Source: a virus (Duplodnaviria > Heunggongvirae > Uroviricota > Caudoviricetes). Taken from it: a stretch of DNA of 49,713 nucleotides. Shown here piece after piece: positions 22,454-49,713 of the stretch. The DNA is taken from IMG/VR virus record IMGVR_UViG_2529292882_000007. The stretch is one strand, 5' to 3'. Every line of letters begins with the position of its first letter. Position 1 is the stretch's first letter. Position numbers and translations under genes: made by a program. The notes under the pieces were generated by a model, which was given only the letters and a program-made list of their open reading frames with translations, ran no database searches and was not told the DNA's origin.

Positions 22454-22455
22454 AG

Positions 22456-23788: not shown

Positions 23789-23865
23789 TGTCGAGACGTC
23801 CTTATACATTTATATAAATATATAATTCTATATACGGCGGGAGACATCCCGCCGTAGGCTTACTG

Positions 23866-24933
23866 TCAGGCTTTTAATAGCGATTCTTTCAGATATCGGG
23901 CATCAGCCAGGGCGTTTGGAGTAATCTTGCGAACCCATGCATTACGAGTTGGACTCCACTTAAAGGCGCGTGATTTAAGCAGCGAACGAATGTTTGCCTC
24001 TGGTTTGCCAGGGAAATAAAACAGGATGCGGTTATCCTCTGGATCTATCTCCATAGAAAAGCCGTCGTATTCTTCGCGCTGTGATCCTGTTACAGACTTG
24101 ACCGATTCAAGCTCTTTAATACGGCTCTGTAGTCGTTTGATTTCGGCGTTATTGTTACTCAGTGAGTATGAAGGAAAGCCAATGTGCCCACAGAAATCTC
24201 CGGCGAGTAACTCTTTGGCTTCGCTTTCAGTAAACTCAAGGTCAATTAATGCGGAAAGCTGCTGTAATTGGTCTTTTTTGTATTTGCGAATAGCCTTATT
24301 TGCGGCCTTCATTTTGATGTGTGACTTCATGCAGCCTTGCAGCTTACGAAGCAACTTAAATAGCGCATCAGGATCATCAGACGAAACTCCATTACGGCCG
24401 ACACCTGCGGCTTTGCTTTCGTAGTACGATGCTCTGCTTTCACACTCAACAAACGATTTTCTGAATAACGCATCAGCTTTAGACAAACGGCGGCGATGGC
24501 CTTTCGCGCTATAATGGTCAACTAAAATCGGCTGGCCTAACGGGATCACATCCAACAGTTCATGCGCTCGCTTATGCGCCACCGCACCTTCTTTTCTGGC
24601 TTTTTCTGCACGAGCAATATATCGGGCAAGACGCGCGTTCTGGCGTTCCTGATAGGTATTTACGTAATCATCTCCGCGCTGCTGCTGTTCAAGCCATGCT
24701 TTGCGCAGCTTTTCTGTTACGTCTACCAACTCCGCAGGGATACAACCTGTTTGGGATTCATAAGAGTGACCATCCTCATAAAGACGTCCATCGTCTTCAA
24801 CAAAGAAAAAGGTGTCGTGCTCATCGCTTTTGACCATACGGCCATTAACATGACGTAATCTATAGCCAGTATCAGTGCTTAACAGGCTGTCAGGGTTGTT
24901 GATCCAGTCAGAAATAATTACTTGTTTATTCAT
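23866..24933 (-). CDS. Hypothetical protein (DUF3560-like by recollection), first gene after cassette copy 2
   Basis: Start ATG 24933 directly after shared leader; ORF-track start at 25083 runs through the leader. Confidence 0.45.
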   Translation of the reverse strand: MNKQVIISDWINNPDSLLSTDTGYRLRHVNGRMVKSDEHDTFFFVEDDGRLYEDGHSYESQTGCIPAELVDVTEKLRKAWLEQQQRGDDYVNTYQERQNARLARYIARAEKARKEGAVAHKRAHELLDVIPLGQPILVDHYSAKGHRRRLSKADALFRKSFVECESRASYYESKAAGVGRNGVSSDDPDALFKLLRKLQGCMKSHIKMKAANKAIRKYKKDQLQQLSALIDLEFTESEAKELLAGDFCGHIGFPSYSLSNNNAEIKRLQSRIKELESVKSVTGSQREEYDGFSMEIDPEDNRILFYFPGKPEANIRSLLKSRAFKWSPTRNAWVRKITPNALADARYLKESLLKA

Positions 24934-24939
24934 CAGATT

Positions 24940-25041
24940 TCTCCGGTTTAACCAGGGCGGGTATCGCTCGGTTTCGGGTATAACCTTAGGAAATTTTTTC
25001 CCACCTGTAAAGCACTTTTTATATAAATCTATAATTATATA
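24940..25041 (-). promoter_or_regulatory. Repeated promoter/5' leader cassette, copy 2 (immediately downstream of Q-like gene)
   Basis: Shares about 100 bp with copies 1 and 3. Confidence 0.6.
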
Positions 25042-25103
25042 TTTATAGATTTTCCGATGTTCCCGGTGCCTACAAATCACCAAAACAGCTCAAAATGACA
25101 CTT

Positions 25104-25481
25104 TTACTCTCTTCTCTTTTTCAAGTAGTCGACAACATACGCCCTGGCCTTTGCCAGCTTCCGGCGATACTGTCTGAGACTAAGAGAAAGGGCGTGGGCT
25201 TTATCAATATGCGGTGCATTTATGTCGAGGCCCCGAATCTCCCACGCCCCGTATTCAATTCGGACAACCAGCGCCGCAGTCTCATCAACTACAGTGAGGG
25301 CCGTCACCGCTCCCTCTATACTGGTTTCCAGTGAGTCATTTGGTGCGCCGCCCCCTCCGGTAAACTGGCAGCGCGTAACCATCATCATTTCTAACATCGA
25401 CGCGAAACCGCTACGGGCGTTGCAGCCATTGCGCACCCACAGCGCCCATAGCTCAAACAAGCTATCCAGATCGCGTCTCAC
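25104..25481 (-). CDS. Putative antitermination protein Q-like late regulator
   Basis: 125 aa; W-x-W and Cys-containing pattern reminiscent of small Q-like antiterminators; position before late promoter-like cassette. Confidence 0.4.
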   Translation of the reverse strand: MRRDLDSLFELWALWVRNGCNARSGFASMLEMMMVTRCQFTGGGGAPNDSLETSIEGAVTALTVVDETAALVVRIEYGAWEIRGLDINAPHIDKAHALSLSLRQYRRKLAKARAYVVDYLKKRRE

Positions 25482-25484
25482 TGT

Positions 25485-25817
25485 TCAGATCTCCCGTATC
25501 GTGACGGGATAAAGCGCCTCTACCTGCTTTTTCTTCATGATGTAGACGTCTGTTCGCACACCTTTAGTGTCGACACAATCAATCGTCCCATCGTCATAAA
25601 ACACCATGAAATCAAGTTTATAAACGACACCACCTGGCAGATGAAAAGGCACCTGCATAAGAAACGTCACAACGCGGCCAGCTTTTCTCAGTAGCTTCAG
25701 TTCGCAGTAGTAATCAGCCTCTTTTTTGCTATCAAAAGCGATATCATCGACAACCGTTTTTTTATTGCCGTATTTGCTTTTCCTGGTCGCTGGTTTGCGA
25801 AAGCCGGTATATCTCAT
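25485..25817 (-). CDS. DUF1064-like protein
   Basis: Motif SKYGNKKTVVDDIAFDSKKEADYY. Confidence 0.5.
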   Translation of the reverse strand: MRYTGFRKPATRKSKYGNKKTVVDDIAFDSKKEADYYCELKLLRKAGRVVTFLMQVPFHLPGGVVYKLDFMVFYDDGTIDCVDTKGVRTDVYIMKKKQVEALYPVTIREI

Positions 25818-26218
25818 TTGGTATCCCCTGGTACTTCACCAAGACTAAGATCAAACCCAATTTCGTCTTTAACTGACTGCGGCAACAGCTCCCACGTCTG
25901 CGCACACAAAAACTCATCGGTGCCATAACGCTCAACAAAGCGAGCACAATTACTCAGGGGAGGGTGACGAACGGCAATATGCGGAGGCACGCGCCCACCA
26001 CCAGGCACAACACCGCGATGATGTGGGGCGCACAATCCAAAGCTATGGAAGTGGCAATTCTCATCAACGCTGCCGTAATCAGGATCGTGATGCAGCTCCG
26101 TCCACAGCTCTGGATTCTCAATTTCACGGCCATCAATAATGCAAGCTATGCACCCCACGTGAGTGAGCACCGCTTGTATATAAAGTTTCTCTTTCTTCGT
26201 TGGTGTACGTCCGTTCAT
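25814..26218 (-). CDS. Putative HNH/Ref-like nuclease
   Basis: Cys/His-rich motifs GCIACIIDG and ELHHDP. Confidence 0.3.
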   Translation of the reverse strand: MNGRTPTKKEKLYIQAVLTHVGCIACIIDGREIENPELWTELHHDPDYGSVDENCHFHSFGLCAPHHRGVVPGGGRVPPHIAVRHPPLSNCARFVERYGTDEFLCAQTWELLPQSVKDEIGFDLSLGEVPGDTK

Positions 26219-26451
26219 CAGCGCCCCTTACCATTGATAAAGAGGTTGAACTCGTTGATTAACTGGACATACATGCTTCTGGCCGCGTAGTTCTTTGCCA
26301 GCTCTTTACGGGATGAGATCCCGCAAAACTCACGCAGAATCACAGAGGCCTCAGAACTGTTTGAAACGTTCTTCCCTGTTTTACTGGTCAGAAAGCGCCA
26401 GAATTGGGGATTCTGGCAATGCATCGCAGCACCGCGAACATAACTACTCAT
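26218..26451 (-). CDS. Hypothetical protein
   Basis: 77-aa ORF. Confidence 0.3.
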   Translation of the reverse strand: MSSYVRGAAMHCQNPQFWRFLTSKTGKNVSNSSEASVILREFCGISSRKELAKNYAARSMYVQLINEFNLFINGKGR

Positions 26452-26963
26452 TGATGGCCCCCGTCATTTCTGGTGCTTTTCACCGTGCGGCTTCTTAAAA
26501 ACCTGCCATCACGAACAACAGACACTTCTCGTTTACCCAACCTCATTTCACGGCGGTAACATTCAGAAAATGCCTCGTCCGGCATCATATAAATGCGACG
26601 CTTCGCCTCCGTATCCAGAAGGGAACGGCTTGGGGTTACATATAAGAACGACTCATCAATAGGGACAAAACCACGAGCAAGAATTGCTGGCAGAATGCCA
26701 GGAAGAACGCAGAAAACAGCTCCACGATGCAGCAACATCTGGTACTCCATGACCTCCGTTATCCCCGTGACTACTGTTACGGTGTCACGTCTGTTACGGC
26801 TGGCAACCAGTCGCTGCACACGTCCAATTTTCTGATCTACAGATAGATGTTTGCTATCGTTATCAATATGATCGATAACAAATCCTTTAATCGTTTGATC
26901 AAGGTAGTGCACCACCTGCGATTGAATCTGGTGATTATCACCAAAGAAGGCCAGAATCATCAT
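26448..26963 (-). CDS. Hypothetical protein
   Basis: 171-aa ORF. Confidence 0.4.
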   Translation of the reverse strand: MMILAFFGDNHQIQSQVVHYLDQTIKGFVIDHIDNDSKHLSVDQKIGRVQRLVASRNRRDTVTVVTGITEVMEYQMLLHRGAVFCVLPGILPAILARGFVPIDESFLYVTPSRSLLDTEAKRRIYMMPDEAFSECYRREMRLGKREVSVVRDGRFLRSRTVKSTRNDGGHQ

Positions 26964-27454
26964 TCCTCAAGCCTCCCAAGTGCTGAACGCCGGGCGTTGC
27001 TAATCTCCTTATGAATCAGCTCGATATCGCTAGAATCTTTATTCTTAAACTCCAGCACGGCAATCGCATCACGAACCTCTGAAACGGTTACGTGTGAGTG
27101 TTTCCAGCGAGCAATGAATCGCGGACCGCGTAAATTACAACGCTCCGCAGGCATCCCCAGCTCAGAGAAAACCGCTTTCAGCCTTGATAAGCAGTTAACA
27201 GGGAGATTCCCTTTGATCTTGTTCTGCCGAACCGATGTGCCATCGCTACGCTGGCGCTGACGTTCGGCAAAATCTGCCGCCCATTGCTGGACGTTAATCC
27301 GGCCTTCCGAATACGCCACCAGCAGCGTCAGGTTATCCGCACGAGGGAATCTCTCGAAGCGATACCAGGCACCAATCAGTGATGACGTAAAGCCAAACTT
27401 TCTGGCAACACCAATTTGGCCTCCATTCTCGTCAACCCACTCCTGAAAGGTCAT
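26960..27454 (-). CDS. Cro/YdaS-like HTH regulator
   Basis: N-terminal HTH-like GGQIGVARKFGFTSSLIGAWYRF; divergent from CI-like gene. Confidence 0.5.
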   Translation of the reverse strand: MTFQEWVDENGGQIGVARKFGFTSSLIGAWYRFERFPRADNLTLLVAYSEGRINVQQWAADFAERQRQRSDGTSVRQNKIKGNLPVNCLSRLKAVFSELGMPAERCNLRGPRFIARWKHSHVTVSEVRDAIAVLEFKNKDSSDIELIHKEISNARRSALGRLEE

Positions 27455-27472
27455 TTAACGAACTCCAGTTAA

Positions 27473-27590
27473 ACCACGATATGTGGTATTAAAACCACAT
27501 ATCGTGAGTTTTTCAATGGGCGAAACAAAAAATAACCTTCTATTTGTGGTCCACCTCTCGTCTTACCATGTGAAAACCACTAAATGTGGT
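27473..27590. promoter_or_regulatory. Operator cluster: ACCAC-N5-GTGGT palindromes O1 27473..27487, O2 27494..27508 (imperfect), O3 27576..27590
   Basis: Three 15-bp inverted repeats in the divergent intergenic region. Confidence 0.6.
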
Positions 27591-27627
27591 AATGTATAAA
27601 TAACCCACCATTCACGATTGATGAGAC

Positions 27628-28284
27628 ATGAAAAGCAACGACGAGAACATCAAGAAAGAAATAGGTCTGCGCATTCAGACTCTACGGAAACAATCCGGCA
27701 TGACTGCCGGAGATCTCCAGCAAGTCACTGGAATAGGCTTAAGCACCTTGCAGAACTATGAGGCCGGATTAAGACAACCATCTATACCTGCCATCAAGAA
27801 AATCGCGCACGCCCTGAAAGCATCAGCGCCTTATATCGCGTGCTTAACAGATAACCCGTTCCCACCCCAGAATACTAACGCTCCTGTTATTCCTGGGCTT
27901 GTAGCTATAAAAAATGACATAGCATCGCACGCCGGAGAAAAGCCAGTGCTGGCGATAGAACAGGAGATTCTACGAAGCAAGAACATCAACCCATCGTCTC
28001 TGTCAGTTCTCCAGAGCAACGATGAGTTAATGTCACCAACAATATCCCCTGGCTCCCAAGTCCTGATTAATACAGACGATACAGAGATTCATGAGGGGAT
28101 CTATGCCCTTGAAGACAGAAATGGCCTGGTTGTTTTGAGGCACTGTAGAGTCATACCGGGTGACAATGCTGTTATGCTGTCAACCGAAAGGGATGCTGAA
28201 ATGAACACTAAGCATCTGAATAACGAGGAATTTAAGCGTTATAAAGTTCTTGGCCGCGTAGTTAGTGTTGTCAACTGGTTATGA
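27628..28284 (+). CDS. CI-like repressor (HTH-XRE plus S24/LexA-like C-terminal domain)
   Basis: N-terminal HTH; C-terminal region with MSP-type Ser motif. Confidence 0.65.
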   Translation: MKSNDENIKKEIGLRIQTLRKQSGMTAGDLQQVTGIGLSTLQNYEAGLRQPSIPAIKKIAHALKASAPYIACLTDNPFPPQNTNAPVIPGLVAIKNDIASHAGEKPVLAIEQEILRSKNINPSSLSVLQSNDELMSPTISPGSQVLINTDDTEIHEGIYALEDRNGLVVLRHCRVIPGDNAVMLSTERDAEMNTKHLNNEEFKRYKVLGRVVSVVNWL

Positions 28285-28326
28285 TACACAGCACGGCGAA
28301 AGCCGTGCATTTCTACGCTCAAAAAA

Positions 28327-28341
28327 ACCACATTTTGTGGT
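28327..28341. promoter_or_regulatory. Operator O4 ACCACattttGTGGT
   Basis: Perfect 15-bp match to operator consensus upstream of ORF 28377. Confidence 0.5.
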
Positions 28342-28376
28342 TTTGACAACATGTAAAAGTATAAAAGAGGCTACGC

Positions 28377-28751
28377 ATGGAATTACATACAGCCAATAAA
28401 AACGAAACTCTGATCACTGCTGGAATCGAAATCCAAGCGTTGAACATAGCGATTGAGTGTATGTTATGCCAAATCATTGATAATGAGAAAGATATCGACT
28501 GGATAGAATCTATCCTTCATCTGGCATCAGAACAAAAAGTCTGCCTCAAAACGGCCTTACAATACGATGTGCCAGCGGTATCGAAGCTGTGCCAGCCATT
28601 AATGGCATATAACAGGGCTATTATTTCTGTATGCCTCATGATTCTTGATGAAAACACCCCTCTTAGCGACCGCTCAGAAGCTGCTCTAACCCTCTCACGT
28701 AAACAGCGACAGCTAGCAAATCAACTGATATCAACGATAGCTGACCTCTGA
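28377..28751 (+). CDS. Hypothetical protein
   Basis: 124-aa ORF followed by hairpin 28755..28775. Confidence 0.4.
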   Translation: MELHTANKNETLITAGIEIQALNIAIECMLCQIIDNEKDIDWIESILHLASEQKVCLKTALQYDVPAVSKLCQPLMAYNRAIISVCLMILDENTPLSDRSEAALTLSRKQRQLANQLISTIADL

Positions 28752-28775
28752 CTGCAAGCGGGCTAACGCCCGCTT

Positions 28776-28878
28776 ATATGATTATAGATTTATATAATTA
28801 TATAAAACGCTTTTCATCCGCCAAAAAGTTGGTTATGCTTACCTCGTTCTATAAATATAGATTTATAGAATTATATAA
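28776..28878. repeat. AT-rich palindromic repeat cluster upstream of parA (candidate centromere/operator)
   Basis: Two blocks containing TATATAATTATATA-like motifs. Confidence 0.45.
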
Positions 28879-28886
28879 CCAAACAC

Positions 28887-29555
28887 ATGGAGTCTCGACA
28901 AATGACTATCTCTGTAGGTATTTTCAACGGAAAAGGCGGCGTAACCAAATCAACAATTGCCCGTGCTTTAGCAGTTGCTTATGCAAAGGCCGGCTGGAAT
29001 GTATGCCTGATCGATATGGATGTGCTTAACGGAACGGTAACGCGTTGGGTACAACGCAGAATGGCCAACAATATCGAACCAGCAATCGCGGCACAGCCGT
29101 GCGGCACACCATCACAAGTCCAGAAAATCATCGAATCAGAAGTATACGACCTGGTTATCGTAGATGGCGGTGCCTACGCATCTGAATCAGTACCGAAGCT
29201 CTCTGAATTTCTGGATATGGTTATTTTGCCAACCAGATTCTCTACCGATGACCTGGAAACCACCGTTAACACAGCTCACGGCATCGTTAAAAAGGGTGTA
29301 CCAATCAAGAAAATTTGCATGGTGTTTTCCGGCGCGGCTGAAAACGAAGCTGACTATATTGAAGCCCAAGAGTACCTGGCTAATACGCCATACTTTGTTG
29401 TCGATAAGTACATTCCCCACAAGCCAGCTCTGAGCAAAGCTCAGGATAAGGGCTTAAGCCTCATTGAGTGCTCATACGTTGCGCCACGCAAAAAGGCAGA
29501 CGACGTTATTCAGGGGATTATCAACCAGCTTGAGGCTCTGACTACTGCCGCGTAA
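28887..29555 (+). CDS. ParA-family partition ATPase (small type Ib, ParF-like); probable start at 28902
   Basis: Deviant Walker A FNGKGGVTKST. Confidence 0.8.
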   Translation: MESRQMTISVGIFNGKGGVTKSTIARALAVAYAKAGWNVCLIDMDVLNGTVTRWVQRRMANNIEPAIAAQPCGTPSQVQKIIESEVYDLVIVDGGAYASESVPKLSEFLDMVILPTRFSTDDLETTVNTAHGIVKKGVPIKKICMVFSGAAENEADYIEAQEYLANTPYFVVDKYIPHKPALSKAQDKGLSLIECSYVAPRKKADDVIQGIINQLEALTTAA

Positions 29556-29598
29556 TATATAATTATAGTTTTATAGATTTATATAAGAGGGGATACAC

Positions 29599-29847
29599 AT
29601 GGCCGCACCATCAAAACCACCAAAGAAGAACAGCAAAGGCGTACCGCCATCGATCGAACAACCGCAGGTTTTCGACCCGACTGAAACGCCAACCAGAACC
29701 AAATCAGGTGGGGCACAAATGGCGTTTAACGTCGACCCTGAATTTAAACGCGAGTACAAAACGTTCGCCAGCTCAATGGATATGTCATTGAAAGAAGTGC
29801 TGACAAAATCTTTTGAGTTACTCAAGGCTCAATACAACCAGAAGTAA
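29599..29847 (+). CDS. Putative ParG-like ribbon-helix-helix centromere-binding protein
   Basis: 82 aa, basic/Pro-rich N-terminal tail, RHH-like C-terminal region; immediately downstream of parA. Confidence 0.45.
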   Translation: MAAPSKPPKKNSKGVPPSIEQPQVFDPTETPTRTKSGGAQMAFNVDPEFKREYKTFASSMDMSLKEVLTKSFELLKAQYNQK

Positions 29848-29876
29848 GAGAAGGTGACGGCCTCCAGCGCCAACTG

Positions 29877-30059
29877 TTGGCCGTCGCGACACAACAAGGG
29901 GAATTTGTTATGTCCGAACAACAATATACACGGTTACTGAAAACTCGTCTAACCGACCTCAAACGGCTGCAAGCTGGTTGCTTATTTGCCCTGCTATCTA
30001 CCAGGCCAGAATGGGTACGTGAAGCAGTTCTGAAAGGCTTAATGCGCTCCAGCGTTTAA
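29877..30059 (+). CDS. Hypothetical small protein
   Basis: ORF track; probable start at internal Met. Confidence 0.3.
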   Translation: MAVATQQGEFVMSEQQYTRLLKTRLTDLKRLQAGCLFALLSTRPEWVREAVLKGLMRSSV

Positions 30060-30069
30060 ATTCAACCAT

Positions 30070-30091
30070 AAAAAAGGCCCCCGAAGGGGCC
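30070..30091. terminator. Hairpin terminator between convergent small genes
   Basis: GGCCCC cgaa GGGGCC stem with flanking A-run/T-run. Confidence 0.55.
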
Positions 30092-30097
30092 TAATCG

Positions 30098-30220
30098 CTA
30101 CTTGCTGCTAATGTTTATCGTCACATTCAGAGCGTTATCAGTAATCTTCCAACCCTCCCCATGTGGCGTAAACAAAGCTCCAGTAACAACGATAAAAATA
30201 CACATGTAGTATTTTTTCAT
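30098..30220 (-). CDS. Small hydrophobic peptide (40 aa)
   Basis: MKKYYMCIFIVVTGALF...; AAGGG SD upstream of ATG 30220; strong terminator downstream. Confidence 0.35.
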   Translation of the reverse strand: MKKYYMCIFIVVTGALFTPHGEGWKITDNALNVTINISSK

Positions 30221-30606
30221 TGTGTGGCCCTTACAGGCCGTTTCACGGCATCCCCACCGACGAAAATGACGCGAGAGCAAGCACGCTGTTTGTGCCTGCG
30301 TGGTACGGCAAGTGGATAATCCTTTCCTGAAAGTCAGTGCCCGGGTGCGAATCGGCGGAAAGGCCCCAAGCCATATTACACGTCATACCCTTCATAATGA
30401 AGGAATAAAAAACGCTTTTATTACATAAGATTACACGTAAATAAGTTAAAAACCTTCATTTTGCATGAGCTAATGAGCTAAATTTTTTTATATGAATAGT
30501 GGACTATTCACCTCAGTTGGGTAAGAATGTAGTTGCTGTTTGTGCTTGCGTGGTTGTATTTATACAACAACGTAATGCTGAAAGGACCGCGAATCCGATC
30601 AGCACG

Positions 30607-35287: not shown

Positions 35288-35587
35288 TCAGATGTTAAAC
35301 GCTATTCGTTTTCCTGTGGGAAGCTCAACATCCAAGCTTAATTTGCCTCCCATAGCTTCAACGTAACGCTTTAATGTCGCCAGCTTTAAATCATTTCCGC
35401 GCTGCTCCAGCTTTGTTACTGCTGGCTGGCTTATACCCATCGCCTCAGCAACCTGTTTTTGTGATAACTGGAGTTCTTCACGCATCATCTGCAAGCCGAC
35501 CTCAAGAATCATCTCATCTGCCATTTCTTTAATTCGCGCCTGGCTTTCAGGTGAACGGCTGGCAATCACCTCATCTAATGTTCTCAT
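35288..35587 (-). CDS. HTH-XRE antitoxin (HigA-like)
   Basis: HTH-like LQLSQKQVAEAMGISQPAVTKLE; downstream of and overlapping toxin gene. Confidence 0.55.
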   Translation of the reverse strand: MRTLDEVIASRSPESQARIKEMADEMILEVGLQMMREELQLSQKQVAEAMGISQPAVTKLEQRGNDLKLATLKRYVEAMGGKLSLDVELPTGKRIAFNI

Positions 35588-35940
35588 TACTTGCTCTCCA
35601 GTGTGTTCAGATGTGCTGCAAACTCATCCTCAGCTATACGCACCAGTTTTTCATAAAACCGTTTATCGTTACTTTTGTCTCCTGCACAAAGAACGATGGC
35701 CCGGCGAATCGGATCGAACGCATAAAAGGCTCTTATCGGACGGCCAGAAAACTGAACGCGAAGCTCTTTCATATTTTTGTACCGAGAACCTTTTACGGTA
35801 TCGGCATATGGCCTGGGTAACTCAGGTCCGTAAACCTGTAGCTTTTTCAAATCAGCCAAAACCTTTTCCTGAAGAGCGTCTTCTTGCTCATTTAGCCAGT
35901 CGTCAAATCGCTGGCTAAAAAGTACCGTCCACATGCTCAA
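35587..35940 (-). CDS. RelE/HigB-like toxin (Gp49-like addiction module killer)
   Basis: 117 aa; gene order toxin then antitoxin with 1-nt overlap. Confidence 0.5.
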   Translation of the reverse strand: MSMWTVLFSQRFDDWLNEQEDALQEKVLADLKKLQVYGPELPRPYADTVKGSRYKNMKELRVQFSGRPIRAFYAFDPIRRAIVLCAGDKSNDKRFYEKLVRIAEDEFAAHLNTLESK

Positions 35941-37396: not shown

Positions 37397-38245
37397 TTAA
37401 TGTTGGAGTGATTTCCAGGTCTTTCTTAGCCTGTTATAACGCTGCTCAACGAGGGAGCGTAAATATGCAAGGTCAGCACCAGGATACATGCCATCAGCAA
37501 ATTCCTGGCTAACCTCTCTAGTGATTTGATGACGAAGTTCGGCCTCTCCCTTTTCCTGAACAAGACGCGCAGCTCTCTCCGCTGCTTTCTGTTTTGCCTT
37601 TATCTCTCTGGCCGTCTTCCTCTGACGCCATACATTCTCCATCTGCTCCTGAATAACAATACGCTTATAATCAGCCTCCGTTATCGCTTTTTTAAGCCGT
37701 TCGCTATTCTTCGCATTGAAGTAATTAAGTTTCTGGCTAACCGCACGTCTCCATGCTTGTTCAGTAATACCAACTGTTTCCAGCAGTTGATCACGAATCT
37801 CGATTTTCGCTGGCCAATACTGTTTATTCACCCGATCCCAGCGACGTTCATAATCAATAAAACCTAACTCTTTCAGTTGCGACAACGCCCTTGTACAGCG
37901 CGTTATAGACTTGTTCCCAGCTTCGGATACGGTAGACAGGCCGCAAAAATCAGCCAACGCCTCAGCACTGGCCAGAACCCGCTTAGAAATGATGTTTACA
38001 TGGTGCAAAATCGCAGCAATCACAGCATTAATCGCCCGACGACGATGCTCGTTTATCCGGCGTTTCCGCTCTGACGGTTGATTAACGTAGAACGCAACCT
38101 CACACGTAAGATCACGACCATTAATGCGCTGTAAAGCATCAGATAACACCAGCGGCAGCTTGTGCGTATGGTGCTTTGGAGGCTGGAACTCCGGCGACAA
38201 ATTACAAACGTAAGCTGAACGTAGAGACGGCATTGGTCTATCCAT
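37397..38245 (-). CDS. repA: Replication initiator RepA, IncFII RepA1-like (ORF track extends to alternative start 38389)
   Basis: Segment RRRAINAVIA...GNKSITRCTRALSQLKELGFIDYE resembles IncFII RepA1 RRRAIDALLQ...GKLSITRATRALTFLSELGLITYQ. Confidence 0.7.
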   Translation of the reverse strand: MDRPMPSLRSAYVCNLSPEFQPPKHHTHKLPLVLSDALQRINGRDLTCEVAFYVNQPSERKRRINEHRRRAINAVIAAILHHVNIISKRVLASAEALADFCGLSTVSEAGNKSITRCTRALSQLKELGFIDYERRWDRVNKQYWPAKIEIRDQLLETVGITEQAWRRAVSQKLNYFNAKNSERLKKAITEADYKRIVIQEQMENVWRQRKTAREIKAKQKAAERAARLVQEKGEAELRHQITREVSQEFADGMYPGADLAYLRSLVEQRYNRLRKTWKSLQH

Positions 38246-38289
38246 ATGTTCGCTCTTGCGTCCACGGAAAACCAACGTATAATGGGAGT

Positions 38290-38372
38290 TGTCGAGGCGC
38301 CCATGGTTAGTTGTTGGTTTTCCTTTCCGTGGATGTCGCAAGAAGCCCGCAGATTTATCTGCGGGCTTTTTG
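38290..38372 (+). ncRNA. Predicted CopA-like antisense RNA complementary to the repA leader
   Basis: Promoter -35 TTGCGT 38256..38261, 16-nt spacer, -10 TATAAT 38278..38283; terminator hairpin 38343..38371 with T-run. Confidence 0.5.
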
Positions 38373-38415
38373 TTTCCATATCTGGTCACTTTTCAACCAG
38401 ACACCCACAATCATA

Positions 38416-38430
38416 ACCACGTTACGTGGT
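38416..38430. promoter_or_regulatory. ACCACgttacGTGGT operator-like palindrome in repA upstream region
   Basis: Matches operator consensus seen at the CI/Cro intergenic region. Confidence 0.4.
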
Positions 38431-38560
38431 TTTAAGAGAACTCTACCACAACACTTTCGGTCATGCACGAAGTCTCTCACTGATCGAACGATAATCCACC
38501 AGTAAAAGGATCTAAATTGGATCTCGTTTTGCGAGCATCATACTACTGGCCTAACTCCAG

Positions 38561-39115
38561 TCAATGATTCCCAGCCGGAAACCTGCGGTAAAGCGTGGAT
38601 AAGGTAACATCGAAGATAATCGCTATCCGCTTACGTGAAACACCATTCGCAATAAGCCTTCCGATCTGTTCCCATTGCTCTGGTGCCAGTTTTGAGCGGC
38701 GTCCTCCTATCCTGCCGTTAGCCCTTGCCACCGCCAATCCTGCACGCGTTCTTTCAATCATATTTTCCCGCTCCATCTCTGCGACTGCACTCAGCATCGT
38801 GTAGGCAAAGCGGCCAATTGAAGTGCTAATTTTTATCCCTTCCGTAATCGAAATAAACTCAATGTTGTTTGATAAAAAATGGTTAAGTAAATCAACAAGA
38901 TGAATCAGAGAACGCCCCATTCGGTCCAGCTTCCAGACAATAACCGTATCGCCCGGTCGTAACACCTTCAGTAGCTTATCAAGTCCTGGTCGTTTTGATT
39001 TAGCACCGGATATTTTATCTTCAAAAATCCGGTCACATCCTGAACTCCTGAGCGCCTCCAGTTGTAATTCCAAATTCTGGTCAAAAGTTGACACCCTCGC
39101 ATAACCATATTGCAT
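38561..39115 (-). CDS. Serine DNA invertase (Hin/Gin/Cin/Pin family)
   Basis: N-terminal YARVSTFDQ catalytic motif; VWKLDRMGRS; C-terminal HTH; adjacent to invertible segment. Confidence 0.9.
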   Translation of the reverse strand: MQYGYARVSTFDQNLELQLEALRSSGCDRIFEDKISGAKSKRPGLDKLLKVLRPGDTVIVWKLDRMGRSLIHLVDLLNHFLSNNIEFISITEGIKISTSIGRFAYTMLSAVAEMERENMIERTRAGLAVARANGRIGGRRSKLAPEQWEQIGRLIANGVSRKRIAIIFDVTLSTLYRRFPAGNH

Positions 39116-39179
39116 ACTTTCTAAACCGCGATTGTTGCTAAAAGCGGGAAAAAATATCGTTCAGACGACACAGAGGCAA

Positions 39180-39205
39180 TTCGCAAAAACCTCGGTTTAC
39201 GAGAA
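39180..39205. repeat. gix/hix-like crossover site (proximal)
   Basis: TTCGCAAAAACCTCGGTTTACGAGAA; inverted relative to 41876..41901, shared core AAACCGAGGT. Confidence 0.7.
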
Positions 39206-39901
39206 CTCGGCACAAGCGGGGAAAAAATACCGTTACTCAGTACGGCGAATACCTGGACCAATCGACAAACATTCAGTGGTGGCCTTTCTGGGGAACTGTC
39301 CGGCAATGCCGCTACTGCAACAAAGCTGAAAACAGCACGAAAAATTGCTGGAGTTGGTTTTGATGGTTCTAGCGATATTTCAATTAGTGCCAAAAATGTC
39401 AATGCATTTGCACTCCGACAAACAGGTAATACTGTTAATGGTGATACATCCGTTGGATGGAATTGGGATAGTGGTGCATATAACGCCCTAATTGGTGGTG
39501 CATCTGCATTAATTCTTCACTTTAATATAAATGCTGGTAGCTGTCCTGCCGTACAATTCCGTGTGAATTATAAAAATGGTGGCATTTCCTACAGGTCGGC
39601 TCGTGATGGTTATGGGTTTGAATTAGGTTGGTCAGATTTCTATACCACGACACGAAAACCTTCAGCGGGAGATGTTGGTGCATATACTCAGGCAGAATGT
39701 AACTCAAGGTTTATTACAGGTATTCGCCTTGGCGGTCTGTCATCTGTTCAGACATGGAATGGCCCCGGCTGGTCTGACAGGTCAGGTTATGTCGTTACGG
39801 GTTCAGTTAACGGGAACCGTGACGAATTAATTGATACAACTCAGGCAAGGCCAATTCAGTATTGCATTAATGGGACTTGGTATAACGCGGGAAGTATTTA
39901 A
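39206..39901 (+). CDS. Alternative tail-fibre C-terminal segment, promoterless in this orientation
   Basis: Open frame from the crossover site; fibre-like NAATATKL motif; ends in NGTWYNAGSI like active fibre NGTWYNVAQV. Confidence 0.6.
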   Translation, partial: LGTSGEKIPLLSTANTWTNRQTFSGGLSGELSGNAATATKLKTARKIAGVGFDGSSDISISAKNVNAFALRQTGNTVNGDTSVGWNWDSGAYNALIGGASALILHFNINAGSCPAVQFRVNYKNGGISYRSARDGYGFELGWSDFYTTTRKPSAGDVGAYTQAECNSRFITGIRLGGLSSVQTWNGPGWSDRSGYVVTGSVNGNRDELIDTTQARPIQYCINGTWYNAGSI

Positions 39902-39903
39902 TT

Positions 39904-40437
39904 ATGATGCACTTAAAAAACATTACCGCTGGTAATCCTAAAACAGTGGAGCAGTACCAGCTAACAAAGCAATTTAACATTAAGTGGCTTTATTCAGATG
40001 ATGGAAAAAACTGGTATGAGGAACAAAAGAATTTCCAGCCAGACACTTTGAAAATGGTCTATGACCATAACGGCGTTATTATTTGCATTGAAAAGGATGT
40101 TTCAGCAATTAATCCAGAGGGGGCAAGCGTCGTTGAATTACCTGATATTACAGCAAATCGCCGGGCTGATATTTCGGGTAAATGGATGTTCAAAGATGGC
40201 GTAGTGATAAAGCGAACTTACACCGAGGAAGAGCAGAGGCAACAAGCGGAAAATGAAAAGCAAAGCCTGTTGCAACTTGTCAGGGATAAAACCCAGCTAT
40301 GGGACTCACAGCTACGGCTGGGCATCATTTCCGACGAGAATAAACAAAAATTAACCGAGTGGATGCTCTACGCGCAGAAAGTCGAATCCACAGACACCTC
40401 CAGCCTGCCAGTAACGTTTCCCGAACAACCAGAATGA
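39904..40437 (+). CDS. Tail fibre assembly chaperone (alternative copy)
   Basis: 177 aa, about 65 percent identical to 40466..40993 product. Confidence 0.75.
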   Translation: MMHLKNITAGNPKTVEQYQLTKQFNIKWLYSDDGKNWYEEQKNFQPDTLKMVYDHNGVIICIEKDVSAINPEGASVVELPDITANRRADISGKWMFKDGVVIKRTYTEEEQRQQAENEKQSLLQLVRDKTQLWDSQLRLGIISDENKQKLTEWMLYAQKVESTDTSSLPVTFPEQPE

Positions 40438-40465
40438 GAGAAGGCCCGCTATCGGGCCTTAATTT

Positions 40466-40993
40466 TTACTCTGGTTTTTGTGGCCATTCTGGCTTTGCCG
40501 TATCCACGCGGCTGACCAGAACGCTGTAGCGTTCCCATGACTCCAGTCGTGTACGCTCCTCATCTGTTGCCATATTCAATCTGACAGCGCGTTCCAGTGG
40601 CTGGATAACTGATTCAGCTTCGGAAAGTAACGCGGACTTTTGTGATTCAGCCTGTTGTTGCTGTTCGTCTTCCGTATAAATCCGTTTAACCACAGCTCCA
40701 TCCTTAAACATCCACTTCCCTGAATCATCGGCACGACGATTAGCTGTTATATCGGGAACCTCAACGACGCTAAAACCTTCAGGATTAAGCGTGGAGGCAT
40801 CTTTAGTGATGGCGACAATAATATTATTTTCGTCGTAAACAATCTTTATTGTGTCTTCCTGAAAATTATTTACTTCCTCATACCAGTTTTTATCATCTTC
40901 GGACCATAACCATATAACATCAAAATTCTTTGTTAGCTGATATTGTTCTTTTGTTTTTGGATTTCCTGATCTGATATTTTTTAAATGCTGCAT
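40466..40993 (-). CDS. Tail fibre assembly chaperone (active orientation)
   Basis: 175 aa immediately downstream of tail fibre gene. Confidence 0.75.
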
Positions 40994-40996
40994 AAT

Positions 40997-43249
40997 TTAT
41001 ACCTGTGCGACGTTATACCATGTGCCATTGATGTATTTCTGAATTGGTCTGAAAATAGCTTCATCATCGCCATCAACTTCACCAATAATTCTTAATCCGG
41101 TAAGTGCGTGTCCGGCAATCTCATAACGCCCGCCGCGTGACATTAATTGAACAACTCGCGTACCAAGCCGGACATCTCCCACATAGCGAGAGTCAAAATT
41201 GCTGTAATTGGATGGGATAACCTGTCCGTGCACATTCAGACCGTGCCCCATAGTAACAAGACCAGTATTAAGCGCGATATAGAATGGACGAAGACCATTC
41301 CAGCTACCGTACTGGTCACCACTGGCAGTAAATAACAGATACAAGCTGCCACCATCCTGTCGCAGAATTGCACCATAATTTCCTGCAATCATCCTTAAAG
41401 CATTCTGTGATGTAGTTATCAGTTCCCCAGTCATGGTATCGCCAGCACGATTCCAGTCGCGACGCCAGCCAGGCGCGTAGGTGTCACCATGATTAATATA
41501 AGTAAATTGCGCTTTTGCTGTACCGTTCGTTGCAGTTGTTGGAGTAGTGACGCGAATAGTCATTGCGCTCTTGGTGCCCATCACTTCAACCACCGAGCCA
41601 GCAAGTTGAATATTCCCGCAACCTGTATCTGTAATAATTTTATTATTGGCGTAAGACCATGAACCTTTGCACATCCAGTATGGGTGATTAAATGCCCCCT
41701 GAGACTCCAGCCACGCAATAAACTGTGCTGTCGTCCAGTTGCTGCTATCTCCTCCAATATTGATACTTCCGCTGGCCGCTTTCGCTGCACCAATATTTTT
41801 TGTGAAAGTATCTTTCCCTGGAATATCCGCACCGTTCTGGTTTTTCTGCAATGCACCAGAAGCCTTGTTTATCGTTTCCTGCAAACCGAGGTATCCGATA
41901 ACGGCAGCAACGGTCGATTTCGCAAGAATATCCCGCCCGACTTTTGTCAGGGTTGCCAGGCTGGCGACATCATTCCCCGTAAAATACGGAAACTTGTCTG
42001 CCGCAGTAGCAAGCCCGGCCAGCGCCGTCAGGGTGGCATCTTTCGGTTGCTTACCCGCAAGCGCGTTAGTCATGGTGGTCGCAAAATTCGGGTCGTTTCC
42101 CAGCGCCGCCGCTAACTCGTTCAGCGTATTCAGTGCGTCAGGCGACGAGTCCACGAGGGCAGCGATCGCAGCCATAACATAAGCCGTGCTTGCGATCTGA
42201 GTATTGTTAGTACCTTTTGGCGCAGTTGGTGTTGTTGGTGTTCCGGTCAGCGCCGGACTGTTCAGGGGCGCTTTCTTGTTCGTTTCATCCATTACCACCT
42301 TTACAGCTTTCGATGTCGCGGCCAGTGTTTCAGACGTGCTGTTGGTGGCACTACTGAGCTGAGTTATTCCCCTTACAGTCAGTGAAGCTACAGGCACATT
42401 TGTTATCTGCGCCCACGAATGCGTGTGATTGGACGGAGCCTTTCCGGCCGCAAGATCATACGCTGCCTTAACAGCCTTTGGTGTTGCTGCCAGCGTTTCA
42501 GACGTGCTGTTGGTGGCACTACTGAGCTGAACAATCCCTTTTCGCGCTGTGGTAGCGTCCTGTGCGGTGTATTTAGCGTTAGCCAGGTCATATGCTGCCT
42601 TAACAGCCTTAGGCGTCGCAGCAAGCGTTTCAGACGTGCTATTGGTGGCGCTGCTAAGTTGAACAAAGCCTTTTGAGGTTAAAGTTGCATCAGGATGATT
42701 ACGTGATTGCTCATGTTTCACAATGGCTTGCTTAAGCCGCTTTGCTGAAACAGCAAGGGAATCATCTGTACCTGCATCAATTTCTTGTTCATTAGCAAAT
42801 CTTGCCACCCCAACAACAGTTTCGGTCGCGGGAGGATTAATAAACTCAATATCACCAAATGTAATATTTTTAGTATCAAGAGTTTTAATTGCTATATCAC
42901 TTGATATTAAAGCGATAGTAGATGATGCTTTATTTATTATTGCTTGTTCTTGTGAGTATACAGCAAACAACGTACCCTTATTCGTATACAATCCTATTGT
43001 ATGGACAACATACTCATCTTTACTATCATCCTTCGCTGTCACATGAATTGTATCAGGGGAAACAACTTTGCCACCTATTGTGGTAAGTCGTTTTATTTCG
43101 TTTGTTATATTTGTTTGTGAAGTTGACGTGACATAATATCTACTACCTAAACCAACAGAAACAATCTCAACTTTATTTGTTCCTGTTTTGTTGGCATTAA
43201 CCAGCTCCTGACGCCCGGCGTCAGTCATCGTAAATAATAATTTACTCAC
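40997..43249 (-). CDS. Tail fibre protein
   Basis: 750 aa; three tandem QLSSATNSTSETLAATPKAVKAAYDLA repeats; crossover site inside gene at 41876..41901. Confidence 0.8.
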   Translation of the reverse strand: MSKLLFTMTDAGRQELVNANKTGTNKVEIVSVGLGSRYYVTSTSQTNITNEIKRLTTIGGKVVSPDTIHVTAKDDSKDEYVVHTIGLYTNKGTLFAVYSQEQAIINKASSTIALISSDIAIKTLDTKNITFGDIEFINPPATETVVGVARFANEQEIDAGTDDSLAVSAKRLKQAIVKHEQSRNHPDATLTSKGFVQLSSATNSTSETLAATPKAVKAAYDLANAKYTAQDATTARKGIVQLSSATNSTSETLAATPKAVKAAYDLAAGKAPSNHTHSWAQITNVPVASLTVRGITQLSSATNSTSETLAATSKAVKVVMDETNKKAPLNSPALTGTPTTPTAPKGTNNTQIASTAYVMAAIAALVDSSPDALNTLNELAAALGNDPNFATTMTNALAGKQPKDATLTALAGLATAADKFPYFTGNDVASLATLTKVGRDILAKSTVAAVIGYLGLQETINKASGALQKNQNGADIPGKDTFTKNIGAAKAASGSINIGGDSSNWTTAQFIAWLESQGAFNHPYWMCKGSWSYANNKIITDTGCGNIQLAGSVVEVMGTKSAMTIRVTTPTTATNGTAKAQFTYINHGDTYAPGWRRDWNRAGDTMTGELITTSQNALRMIAGNYGAILRQDGGSLYLLFTASGDQYGSWNGLRPFYIALNTGLVTMGHGLNVHGQVIPSNYSNFDSRYVGDVRLGTRVVQLMSRGGRYEIAGHALTGLRIIGEVDGDDEAIFRPIQKYINGTWYNVAQV
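41876..41901. repeat. gix/hix-like crossover site (distal, inside tail fibre gene)
   Basis: TTCCTGCAAACCGAGGTATCCGATAA encoding fibre residues ...GYLGLQE... Confidence 0.7.
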
Positions 43250-43279
43250 GCTTAATTCCTTGAATTAACAAATTGCGAA

Positions 43280-43861
43280 TTAGCACTCGCCAATTAATCG
43301 TACATAAGACACAGGCTGACAAGCACCAACAATACCGACACCACCAGAAACATTGGCTGCTTGCGAAAATGTAAATAATGTTCTTGCCGACTTTGCGCTC
43401 TTGATACTTCTTAACGTATCTTCCAACATCTCTTTCGAAGGAACGGCACCATCAAAAGAGTTAATCGAAGCAACAATTGAGGCTGTATATGGTTCGCCAG
43501 GTGGTGATGTTTCAAACCATTCTGTTATGTTTACCTCTCCACCCAAGCTATTTACTACATCTTCAACCGCTGCCCTTGTACCCTTTATTCGCTTTGTTCG
43601 TATTATTGATTTAAAAACAGAACGCTTTAACGATACAGGCCAACTATCCCTCCATGTATCAGCATTCCATTGCCAAGCTAAATGATCGAGAACAACTGAG
43701 TCCAGGTTATCAACAACGCTATATATTTCTGTCTTATATATTAAATTGTTAATTGCTTGTAGTTCATCATCGATAGCTTTCGACATAGCTATCACGTTGG
43801 GATCTCTAGCTAAGTTAGGAGGTAAAACATCCAACAAGCTAACATTAAAGATATCAGCCAT
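43280..43861 (-). CDS. Baseplate/tail protein I-like
   Basis: 193-aa ORF between baseplate J-like and tail fibre genes. Confidence 0.5.
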   Translation of the reverse strand: MADIFNVSLLDVLPPNLARDPNVIAMSKAIDDELQAINNLIYKTEIYSVVDNLDSVVLDHLAWQWNADTWRDSWPVSLKRSVFKSIIRTKRIKGTRAAVEDVVNSLGGEVNITEWFETSPPGEPYTASIVASINSFDGAVPSKEMLEDTLRSIKSAKSARTLFTFSQAANVSGGVGIVGACQPVSYVRLIGEC

Positions 43862-47380: not shown

Positions 47381-47588
47381 TATTGCGTCTCCACGGAGGC
47401 AAATTGTTTACTGATATTGGCATAACCGGAGCATCAGGAACTTTAAGAATAATTCCCGCAGAAAAAAGCACCGTAAAGCGGTGCTCAGTATTAGCATCAA
47501 TAAGAAGATAAGACAGGTACTCATTACCATACAACTTTAACGCGATACTATCCCATGAGTCCCCTTGAACCGTTCTATAATCATCCAA
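47370..47588 (-). CDS. LysM-domain tail protein (P2 gpX-like)
   Basis: 72 aa; LysM-like VQGDSWDSIALKLYG. Confidence 0.5.
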   Translation of the reverse strand: MDDYRTVQGDSWDSIALKLYGNEYLSYLLIDANTEHRFTVLFSAGIILKVPDAPVMPISVNNLPPWRRNSVT

Positions 47589-49713
47589 AACTTAATCTCC
47601 GTTGTTGGAACATATGAGCACTCAATTTCTTCTCAAAATCAGAATATCCCGCATCTAATGCTCTTTTAGCTGCCGCCTCAGTTTCCTTTGGTGAACCAGC
47701 CGGAAGATTGATTACAGGTGAATAGGTTATTCCACCAGTCACAGCATTAACGTTCTGGCGAGGTCCAGAAGTCCCGGCGGCAGATATCCCGTGAGGTGAT
47801 AAATTTGATTGCCCGAACTTGGTTGCTATTGCATTCTGTAAGCTGTTATTCCTGCTAACGCCTGATGCCAGAGTAGTCATTATTGCACCACCTGACTTTG
47901 TTAGCTGTGAGAATGGACCTTTTTTCGCGTCAGAGAACGGTAAATACTCACGTACAGAAGAAAAAACGCCTTTCACTTCATTAATTAAAGCATTTGCTTT
48001 TGATTTTATCCCAGTGATTAACGTCTCAATTATTTTTGCGCCTGACTCACTCCAGTTTATTCCAGACAAATAAGCCGTTACAGATTGGAATGCTCTTATA
48101 AAGAGTCCAACTGGTGAAAAACGCATAAAAACAGATACCAGTGTATCTATGATTTTCTTTCCTGTTTCGCTCCAGTTAATACCAGAAAGGTAATTTGTTG
48201 TAAGTTTAAATGCTTTAATTAAGAACGGAAGCGGAGACATCCATTTAAAAGCACTAATTAATGTACTGTAAATTCTTACTCCTGCCGAACTCCAGTTTAT
48301 GTTGGAAAGATAATCCCATGCTTTACCAAACATAGATATAATCCATCCATTGAGATCAAAGTTTAAGATAAAGTTTTTTATAGCTTCAAACGATTTAACT
48401 GTATATTCCTTAACAGAAGGCCAAACTCTGACAGCATAATCTCTGATCTTATCCCAGTTCTGATAGAGCAATATTCCTGCGGCAACCAGCGCAGATATAG
48501 CCATCTGAATCCACCCGAAGGGTGTTAGCTTTGTCGCTACAGATAAAGCCAGCATAGCTACCCTACACGCTATAACCACACTTTTCATGGTTAGAAACGC
48601 ACCTGCCGCCATCACAATCTGAGACACAAAATTGGGGTTGTTAGCTACAAATTCACTAATTTTTGTAATCAGCGGAACCAAAACACTAAGCGCGGCATTC
48701 AAAGCAGGTTGCAAGGCCTGACCAAAACTTAATGATGCATTGCTAGCCTGAATACGTAATTGTTTCAATCGCTCCGCATTGTCTTTCGTTATGTTGGCAA
48801 AATCGCGGTCAATAACAGCACTTCCAGCACCAAGAGATGTTGCTTTGATTCTCTGGTATTCCTTCCAGTTTTGAATCATCGGACGAACAAAGTTCTGAAC
48901 CTGCATATCGCCAAATAGCTCACCAAGTAACTTCTGATCTCCGTTCTTAGTCATTTTCATGACAGAATGCATTGCAGCTTCGAATGGATTCTTCCCTTTT
49001 TTCTGCGCTGTTGTGACAATTTTATATAAATCTACACCGAAATTTTTCTTTGCTTTTTTTAGTGTTTCAGGGGAAAGTATTTTCGCCAAAAAGTTGTTCA
49101 TATTATTAGCAGCCTCATCCGAAGTTGCAGCACCTTTGCGAGCTATCTGCAAAGCTGCCCCCATCGTCGCGGCGGCTTCTTTACCTCCCATTTTTAATGC
49201 CTGGAACTGGGCACCAAGCACAGGAAGATTTTTGGCCATATCTTTAAATTCAAAATTTCCCTCTTTCCCTGCCTGAACCAGAATCCCCATTGCAGACTTC
49301 ATTTGAGATGGATCAATCTTCAATGAGTCACTTAATGTAAATGATGCTTTCGAGACATCGAGGATATCAGAGCCAGTAGCTGTAGCTGTTCGCCCAATAG
49401 TTAGTAGATTCGCCTGAGCCTCTTTATAATCCTGCCCAGCAGCGACGAGAAAACCCTGAGCAGCCTGAATATCAGATGCAAACTGGTTGGTAGCCGTTCC
49501 GGTAACAAGCATCGCCTGCCCCATCGCCTGAACTTCTTCCGGCTTCATATCTGCCGTAAGACCAATCATTTTGTTTTCACGATTGAAATTTGCTGCATTG
49601 TTAGCAGCAGCAAATGCACCAGCCGCTACAGCACCAGTTTGTAATCCTGACCTTACAAGTTGACTCTTTGCCTCACCAAGATGCTCTCGCTTCAATTCAC
49701 GCTGCCTTTCCAA
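47581..49713 (-). CDS. Tail tape measure protein, C-terminal part (N-terminal part at 1..755)
   Basis: 710-aa ORF running off the window end in frame with 1..755; repeated hydrophobic W-containing motifs. Confidence 0.75.
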   Translation of the reverse strand: MERQRELKREHLGEAKSQLVRSGLQTGAVAAGAFAAANNAANFNRENKMIGLTADMKPEEVQAMGQAMLVTGTATNQFASDIQAAQGFLVAAGQDYKEAQANLLTIGRTATATGSDILDVSKASFTLSDSLKIDPSQMKSAMGILVQAGKEGNFEFKDMAKNLPVLGAQFQALKMGGKEAAATMGAALQIARKGAATSDEAANNMNNFLAKILSPETLKKAKKNFGVDLYKIVTTAQKKGKNPFEAAMHSVMKMTKNGDQKLLGELFGDMQVQNFVRPMIQNWKEYQRIKATSLGAGSAVIDRDFANITKDNAERLKQLRIQASNASLSFGQALQPALNAALSVLVPLITKISEFVANNPNFVSQIVMAAGAFLTMKSVVIACRVAMLALSVATKLTPFGWIQMAISALVAAGILLYQNWDKIRDYAVRVWPSVKEYTVKSFEAIKNFILNFDLNGWIISMFGKAWDYLSNINWSSAGVRIYSTLISAFKWMSPLPFLIKAFKLTTNYLSGINWSETGKKIIDTLVSVFMRFSPVGLFIRAFQSVTAYLSGINWSESGAKIIETLITGIKSKANALINEVKGVFSSVREYLPFSDAKKGPFSQLTKSGGAIMTTLASGVSRNNSLQNAIATKFGQSNLSPHGISAAGTSGPRQNVNAVTGGITYSPVINLPAGSPKETEAAAKRALDAGYSDFEKKLSAHMFQQRRLSFG

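Follow-up and report, generated by a model that had tools for sequence, protein, structure and literature searches.

A probable two-state invertible tail-fibre segment on a phage-plasmid of Escherichia coli B799

Results

Two fibre cassettes lie between inverted gix-like sites

The stretch of DNA analysed here, referred to below as the window, is the 49,713-base-pair (bp) virus record IMGVR_UViG_2529292882_000007, which is the whole of scaffold JH768577.1 of Escherichia coli B799 (GCA_000261385.1). It carries a tail fibre gene, two convergent cassettes that each encode a fibre tip and its chaperone, and a gene for a serine DNA invertase. This arrangement very probably represents a two-state invertible segment of the kind known as the G segment of phage Mu, the C segment of P1 and the P segment of e14, residing in this case on a circular phage-plasmid of about 49.7 kilobases (kb).

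The fibre gene is a single open reading frame (ORF) of 750 amino acids on the minus strand (40997-43249) and closes the series of structural genes in the baseplate/tail operon, coming after the Baseplate_J and Tail_P2_I genes (Pfam assignments) on the same strand. Residues 1-454 form the constant N-terminal part, Sc (41888-43249, minus strand), and residues 455-750 the variable C-terminus now fused to it, Sv (40997-41887, minus strand), which is followed by the gene for U, the chaperone of the currently expressed cassette (40466-40993, minus strand). Facing this pair on the plus strand is the silent alternative fibre C-terminus, Sv' (39194-39901), a frame that is open from the left-hand site, extends 235 amino acids past the crossover and matches Pfam gp37_C, together with its chaperone, U' (39904-40437). 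Both chaperones match Pfam Caudo_TAP. Sv-U and Sv'-U' are therefore two convergent cassettes lying between the two sites described below, and between their chaperone genes is a G+C-rich terminator-like hairpin (40441-40460) in which six pairs of the 8-bp stem are G-C and a T run follows.

The silent cassette contains neither a stop codon nor a frameshift over its 235 codons, and its chaperone gene is intact. Sv' has no start codon of its own that would serve the whole frame, as no ATG, GTG or TTG occurs from the left-hand site until position 39563 in a frame that ends at 39901. Promoter-like sites in the region 38400-43400 number seven, compared with 9.2 expected from shuffled sequence, and none coincides with the beginning of the Sv' frame or immediately precedes it; on the plus strand, the nearest match (39974-40002) is within U'. 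These features agree with the original prediction, made from the sequence alone, that one site precedes a promoterless alternative C-terminus with its own chaperone.

Crossover sites and their significance

The two gix-like sites are 26 bp each. Site L (39180-39205, minus strand; TTCGCAAAAACCTCGGTTTACGAGAA) consists of an outer half TTCGCAAAAACC, the core TC/GA and an inner half GGTTTACGAGAA. Site R (41876-41901, plus strand; TTCCTGCAAACCGAGGTATCCGATAA) is located inside the fibre ORF at codons 450-458 (..IGYLGLQE..). The sites are mutually inverted and have in common the exact 10-mer AAACCGAGGT, which occurs exactly twice in the window, at sites L and R. When compared with gixR of Mu (TTCCTGTAAACCGAGGTTTTGGATAA, taken from the Mu record), site R has four mismatches and site L five, and no further gix-like site is present on either strand of the whole window, where the next best position has at least nine mismatches to gixR. 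A hand calculation that assumes uniform base composition gives about 4e-4 positions with five or fewer mismatches expected per window. A 2.7-kb segment at 39180-41901, bounded by inverted 26-bp sites with a conserved core, one of them within the tail fibre gene, had been proposed at the outset, and these coordinates prove to be the exact outer limits of sites L and R.

As a bare inverted repeat the L/R pair is weak (17 nucleotides, or nt, at 82% identity), ranking 14th by length among 43 inverted-repeat pairs in the surrounding 8 kb. The pair is thus significant because of its homology to gix and its position, and not because of the strength of the repeat. As is usual in the family, each site is composed of two 12-bp half-sites of imperfect dyad symmetry that flank the asymmetric dinucleotide GA, and the half-sites match themselves at 9/12 and 7/12 positions in the two sites of the window versus 7/12 for Mu. 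The GA dinucleotide is the same in L and R and inverted in one relative to the other; at site R, this crossover dinucleotide corresponds to bases 2-3 of the Leu454 codon.

The inner half and core of site L can also fold into a 5-bp hairpin with a T run after it (39190-39204, minus strand; TCTCG TAAAC CGAGG TTTTTGCGAA). This hairpin was flagged as terminator-like on the strand that runs from the segment to the invertase gene, and is probably a mere by-product of the dyad symmetry of the site.

Other candidates for recombination sites were considered and rejected. A 40-nt inverted repeat (39848-39887 and 41011-41050) corresponds to the homologous C-terminal ends of Sv' and Sv, where it encodes ..RPIQ.(Y/C)INGTWYN.. 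immediately ahead of the stop codons, and we rejected it because recombination there would swap nothing. Additional or cryptic crossover sites of the type found in Min or in shufflons were likewise rejected, as the gix scan of both strands found none.

In-silico inversion yields a fibre nearly identical to a natural one

Inverting positions 39192-41889 in silico produces one open fibre of 689 amino acids (..VIGYLGL|RELGTSGEK..NAGSI) followed by U', in place of the native 750 amino acids. This predicted fibre is identical at 687/689 positions (99.7%) to an annotated protein, WP_251301841.1, encoded on plasmid NZ_CP070025 of E. coli FDAARGOS_1337. The corresponding junction on that plasmid, TTCTCGTAAACCGAGGTATTCGAT, combines the inner half of the window's site L with an outer half of the R type. 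The alternative junction is therefore present in a natural plasmid, as expected from the earlier proposal that inversion would swap the receptor-binding domain of the fibre.

A 48.5-kb sister plasmid of strain ATCC 25922 has been deposited in both states of the segment. Between records NZ_CP009073 and NZ_CP032086 (for which the locus at 70663-78923 was used), a 3048-nt block is exactly reverse-complemented, with 0 mismatches, and its flanks of 2199 nt and 3014 nt are identical. The switch points fall within ACCTCGGTTT and AAACCGAGGT, i.e., inside the shared core. The two arrangements recur in a third and a fourth record of this strain, NZ_CP158444 having the other one. In addition, NZ_CP032086.1 is a 94,204-bp 'linear' record that contains two copies of the 48.5-kb phage-plasmid with their fibre segments (loci 70663-78923 and 22175-30435) oppositely oriented, and it represents either a genuine dimer or a mixed population that was concatenated during assembly. 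The homologous segment of this sister plasmid thus flips. More generally, searches with the native sequence and with its in-silico inverted form show that both orientations occur among deposited plasmid relatives.

Fibre cassettes are mosaics of modules known from other phages

A region of 4.8 kb shares about 90% nucleotide identity with the U, U' and Sv-end parts of the invertible segments of D108, P1, P7 and D6. At the protein level, U is 94% identical to Mu U and matches the sequence of 5YVQ chain B over its full length, U' is 97% identical to Mu U', and the last 165 amino acids of Sv' share 89% identity with the tip of Mu S', matching residues 322-488 of PDB 8JU3. The active Sv is a mosaic, wherein residues 451-603 resemble the N-terminal part of Mu S' (8JU3) and not Mu S, residues 605-689 resemble the trimerisation domain (C-terminal domain) of T4 gp34, and residues 674-749 resemble the end of Mu S. 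Presumably, it is this Mu-S-like end that docks chaperone U. The two fibre tips are unrelated to each other in sequence.

The fibre cassettes can be viewed as mosaics of modules that are combined differently in Mu. Silent cassettes of relatives also differ widely in length, with annotated ORFs of 366 amino acids in vB_YpM_41, 317 in pP136-7 and 278 in NZ_CP070025, compared with the 235 amino acids that follow the crossover here.

The constant part of the fibre includes three Phage_fiber_2 motifs (42282-42674, minus strand; 42-amino-acid Pfam profile, E = 8e-59) that are also repeated at the nucleotide level, with copies at 42282, 42450 and 42582. They are located in Sc, outside the swapped segment. 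The original prediction had three tandem repeats of 40 amino acids at this location. Three repeated motifs do exist, but they are Phage_fiber_2 motifs spaced 56 and 44 amino acids apart with approximately 31 residues conserved, and Tandem Repeats Finder does not call them as an array. Neither the invertase nor the fibre and its chaperones can be assigned to a specific NCBIfam family, every match being far below cut-off.

The invertase belongs to a divergent lineage

The invertase gene (38561-39115, minus strand) encodes 184 amino acids with Pfam Resolvase (2.6e-44) and HTH_7 (2.9e-13) domains, close to the ~185-195 amino acids of enhancer-dependent serine invertases (the Din family). The gene is read away from the segment, with its 5' end facing site L across a spacer of 64 bp between the start codon and the site. 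Among solved structures, Gin is the best match (3UJ3, 211 bits; Gin structures, 4M6F included, score 211 and 207), whereas gamma-delta and Tn3 resolvases fall in the range of 99-110 bits, with gamma-delta at 110. The Hin/Gin-type invertase that had been expected beside the segment is therefore found there. Its sequence is 61% identical to PinE of e14 (183 amino acids, ungapped), 55% to Cin and 51% to Gin. The catalytic positions R7-V-S9 and D64-R65..R68 align with Gin without gaps, and ..RVS9T.. is kept relative to Gin, Cin and PinE.

Close relatives of this enzyme are few among deposited phages. The protein is identical at 183/184 positions to the enzyme of the ATCC 25922 plasmid, with S24L as the single difference, and is 100% and 99% identical to those of Yersinia phages vB_YpM_39 and vB_YpM_41, respectively. 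P1-like Salmonella phage SJ46 carries an invertase that is 88% identical, and all others in the phage collection are at most 62% identical. Identity of at least 88% is thus confined, in this collection, to the phage-plasmids of about 49 kb, vB_YpM_39, vB_YpM_41 and SJ46. Judged by these sequence identities, the invertase represents a distinct lineage that is rare among deposited phages.

To align residues, we take Hin numbering to be that of Gin plus one. Helix E of the invertase (residues 103-108; 38792-38809) reads F103-A-Y-T-M-L108, versus F-F-F-H-V-M in Gin, Cin, PinE and Hin, such that Ala, Tyr, Thr and Leu occupy the positions of Hin Phe105, Phe106, His107 and Met109. In Hin, helix E constitutes a 'phenylalanine switch' that keeps the dimer inactive until activation by Fis, and these same four residues gate Fis/enhancer dependence, tetramer formation and ligation (PMC4513852). 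The single changes F105A, M109L and most F106X abolish or nearly abolish inversion in Hin or are toxic, and position 106 functions only with Phe and weakly with Tyr (PMC4513852).

Residues of Hin that contact Fis (Arg154 and Leu155; PMC3798978) are retained as R153-L154. For the basic helix-B residues K47, R48 and K51 of Hin (PMC3798978), the invertase of the window retains K47 and K50 and has Asp at position 46. A candidate recombinational enhancer was assigned by position to nt 19-90 of the invertase gene (39026-39097, minus strand), which align without gaps with nt 19-90 of P1 cin, where its enhancer is annotated. Nucleotide identity to gin and cin is 65% and 61% in this stretch, which is also coding, versus 55% in the rest of the gene. 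Similarly, codons are identical at 8/14 of the amino acids shared with gin in the candidate enhancer versus 26/82 elsewhere, a comparison that coding constraint confounds. In phage systems of this family, the cis-acting enhancer to which Fis binds is within the first ~100 bp of the invertase gene. Because the stretch is also coding, the values found here only hint at such an enhancer.

The carrier element is a phage-plasmid

At the right end of the window, the ORF for the tape measure protein (47581-49713) runs off the sequence, and genes for sheath and tube are found at the left end (1-3202) on the same strand. Because the tail operon spans the ends of the window, the scaffold corresponds to a circular element of approximately 49.7 kb that was linearised within this operon. 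The element has a complete set of head, tail and baseplate genes. Directly beside the invertase gene is a gene for an IncFII-type RepA (37397-38389, minus strand; Pfam). Further along the same strand is a pair of ORFs of 117 and 99 amino acids (35288-35940) that match the 'higB2 putative toxin' of vB_YpM_41 and its neighbour, a likeness drawn from position and size only. RepA and this pair together make up the module for plasmid maintenance.

The backbone is 97-98% identical to that of many non-mobilizable E. coli plasmids of about 48 kb, and relatives have been isolated as the plaque-forming Yersinia phages vB_YpM_39 and vB_YpM_41. Two other elements, pSLy3 and HQ103, proved to be unrelated. 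Our search of the literature on this phage-plasmid family found no description of the fibre switch.

Discussion

A two-state fibre switch

The arrangement of sites, cassettes and invertase suggests how the segment would operate. Invertase dimers would bind the two 26-bp sites and synapse them, probably on an enhancer, bound by Fis, in the opening ~90 bp of the invertase gene. Both sites would then be cut by Ser9 at the central GA/TC dinucleotide, half of the tetramer would rotate by 180 degrees, and the ends would be rejoined, leaving the 2.7 kb between 39193 and 41888 inverted. The steps of synapsis, cleavage and rotation follow the mechanism of the family (PMC3798978), and inversion by this enzyme may similarly depend on Fis and on an enhancer early in the invertase gene. 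As the exchange would take place within codon Leu454, and the two sites are read in one frame as ..LGL.., Sc can be joined to either Sv or Sv'. The 454 residues of Sc would accordingly carry either Sv (296 amino acids, with U following), which is the state of the assembly, or Sv' (235 amino acids, with U' following). Only the cassette joined to Sc would be transcribed and translated, from the late tail operon, and the other would be silent for want of a start codon and a detectable promoter. A lysogenic population would then make two kinds of virion with different receptor-binding tips, a form of host-range bet-hedging.

Several observations weigh against this interpretation. The B799 molecule is represented by one orientation only in its assembly, and the exact flipped fibre of 689 amino acids, with either V or M as its first residue, is absent from a collection of 15 billion proteins, in which the native 750-amino-acid fibre forms a singleton cluster. 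The invertase has low identity (51-61%) to Gin, Cin and PinE, and its atypical helix E, FAYTML, departs from the family at residues where changes are crippling in Hin (PMC4513852). The candidate enhancer is placed only by its position and by modest extra nucleotide conservation. Finally, it is we who infer that the two tips, which presumably bind different receptors, differ in host range. Since the window is known in a single state and its flipped fibre is absent from the collection, the activity of this particular copy is likewise something we infer, though strongly. On the sequence comparisons made here, the reading of the locus as an invertible host-range switch of the Gin/Hin type is nonetheless supported.

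Alternative explanations

Perhaps the segment is a frozen relic of an ancestral architecture like that of Mu or P1, which no longer inverts and from which only Sv-U is made. The single orientation of the assembly and the failure to find the flipped fibre among public proteins would both be expected in this case, and the helix-E residues would each cripple Hin (PMC4513852). However, a relic would not readily account for an invertase ORF that is full length with its catalytic residues present, for an identical 10-bp core and GA crossover kept at both sites, or for a silent cassette that is open over 235 codons beside an intact chaperone gene. Moreover, an enzyme that differs by one residue (S24L) flips the segment in ATCC 25922, and we therefore regard a relic as improbable.

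A second alternative is that inversion mainly serves the lysogen, with proteins derived from the fibre blocking the adsorption of other phages, as described for PinQ and PinR in cryptic prophages. There is precedent in that fibre flips by serine invertases of prophages are reported to inhibit adsorption of T2 (PMC12529663; bioRxiv 10.1101/2025.03.28.646004). Nevertheless, the element in the window is not cryptic, as its head, tail and baseplate genes are complete; phages closely related to it form plaques; each cassette encodes a complete fibre tip and has a chaperone of its own; and promoter-like sites from which a cassette could be expressed separately do not rise above the shuffled background (7 versus 9.2 expected). 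Protection of the lysogen is consequently most improbable as the main function of inversion, though it may be an additional one.

It is scarcely credible that the recombinase is instead a resolvase of plasmid multimers and the inverted sites incidental, even though its gene adjoins IncFII repA (37397-38389) and a 94-kb molecule of double length occurs among the ATCC 25922 records, because the protein is far closer to Gin than to resolvases (211 versus 110 bits), the 64 bp between start codon and site L are too few for a res with its three subsites (about 114 bp), and the only two sites in the window are inverted rather than direct.

A two-state invertible fibre segment thus remains our preferred interpretation, and within it the departure in helix E weakens the claim of canonical regulation without affecting the identity of the protein as an invertase. 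Because the sister enzyme of ATCC 25922 flips its segment, the lineage must have compensated for this departure. The change in helix E may bring a different control. As a tentative and rather doubtful suggestion, the lineage could use a re-wired activation switch, for example with weaker or no dependence on Fis, or with a flipping rate suited to a multicopy plasmid-prophage.

Implications

Inversion of fibre segments, as in Mu (G segment, Gin), P1 (C segment, Cin) and e14 (P segment, Pin), serves Mu and P1 to change their host range and has been known since the 1980s, and the switch in the window therefore answers no open question. What is new is this copy on a phage-plasmid of about 49 kb with an IncFII RepA, and its sole unusual feature is the divergent invertase lineage with an atypical helix E. 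In public annotations these genes bear no more than the labels 'recombinase family protein', 'tail fiber protein' and 'hypothetical/partial phage tail protein'. As a result of such generic labels, both the switch and the differences that it creates between assemblies of the same strain have been overlooked across the ~48-kb phage-plasmids of E. coli, a widespread family. The main value of the present analysis is thus in annotation and in explaining why assemblies of one strain differ. Those who use such phages or type such plasmids should expect two virion types per lysogen. Beyond this practical aspect, the flipping of the segment of ATCC 25922 by an enzyme identical at 183/184 positions suggests that this invertase lineage evidently works in vivo, and an atypical helix E in an evidently active invertase would, as a natural experiment, put to the test the 'phenylalanine switch' model, which is based on mutagenesis of Hin (PMC4513852).

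Comparison with known systems

The closest parallel in layout is the G segment of Mu and D108 with its invertase Gin. Order and polarity are the same (Sc, site, Sv-U and U'-Sv' converging, site, invertase reading away), as is the distance to the invertase gene of roughly 70-80 bp (67 bp from the G-segment boundary to the start of gin, and ~77 bp from the centre of the site to the invertase start here). The 26-bp sites have the core AAACCGAGGT in common with Mu gixL and gixR; U, U' and the Sv' tip are 94%, 97% and 89% identical to their Mu counterparts; and the segments are of similar length, at 3.06 kb in Mu and 2.7 kb here. On the other hand, the invertase is only 51% identical to Gin, Sc has 169 amino acids in Mu versus 454 amino acids with three Phage_fiber_2 motifs here, and the active Sv is a mosaic that is only 31% identical to Mu Sv. 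Mu is also a transposing phage, whereas the element described here is a plasmid-prophage with a P2-like baseplate.

In its lifestyle the element is more similar to P1 and P7, which are plasmid-prophages whose C segment and Cin follow the same logic, with about 90% nucleotide identity over U, U' and the flanking Sv ends. An enhancer is annotated within the 5' end of cin, and the same position holds only a candidate here. Unlike the invertase gene of the window, which reads away from the segment, cin reads towards it, and cixL overlaps the 3' end of cin. The segment of P1 is longer (4.2 kb), and the two invertases are 55% identical.

Of the three classical invertases compared, PinE of e14, from E. 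coli K-12, comes nearest (61%), and the P segment also resembles the present one in its layout, with stf/tfa cassettes beside pin and an invertase that reads away with its 5' end by the site. However, the e14 prophage is defective and its fibre genes have decayed, stfE being a pseudogene, whereas the cassettes and virion module here are intact. The Min system of p15B and the shufflons of plasmids are comparable in that a recombinase acts on a plasmid to shuffle C-terminal ends, whether of adhesins or of fibres. With more than two crossover sites they adopt many arrangements, whereas the exactly two sites of the window give two states. The Hin/hix system of Salmonella has an enzyme of the same subclass and 26-bp sites, and in Hin there is control by Fis and an enhancer (PMC3798978). 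Hin, however, flips a promoter and is encoded inside its segment, whereas the invertase described here would swap coding cassettes and is encoded outside.

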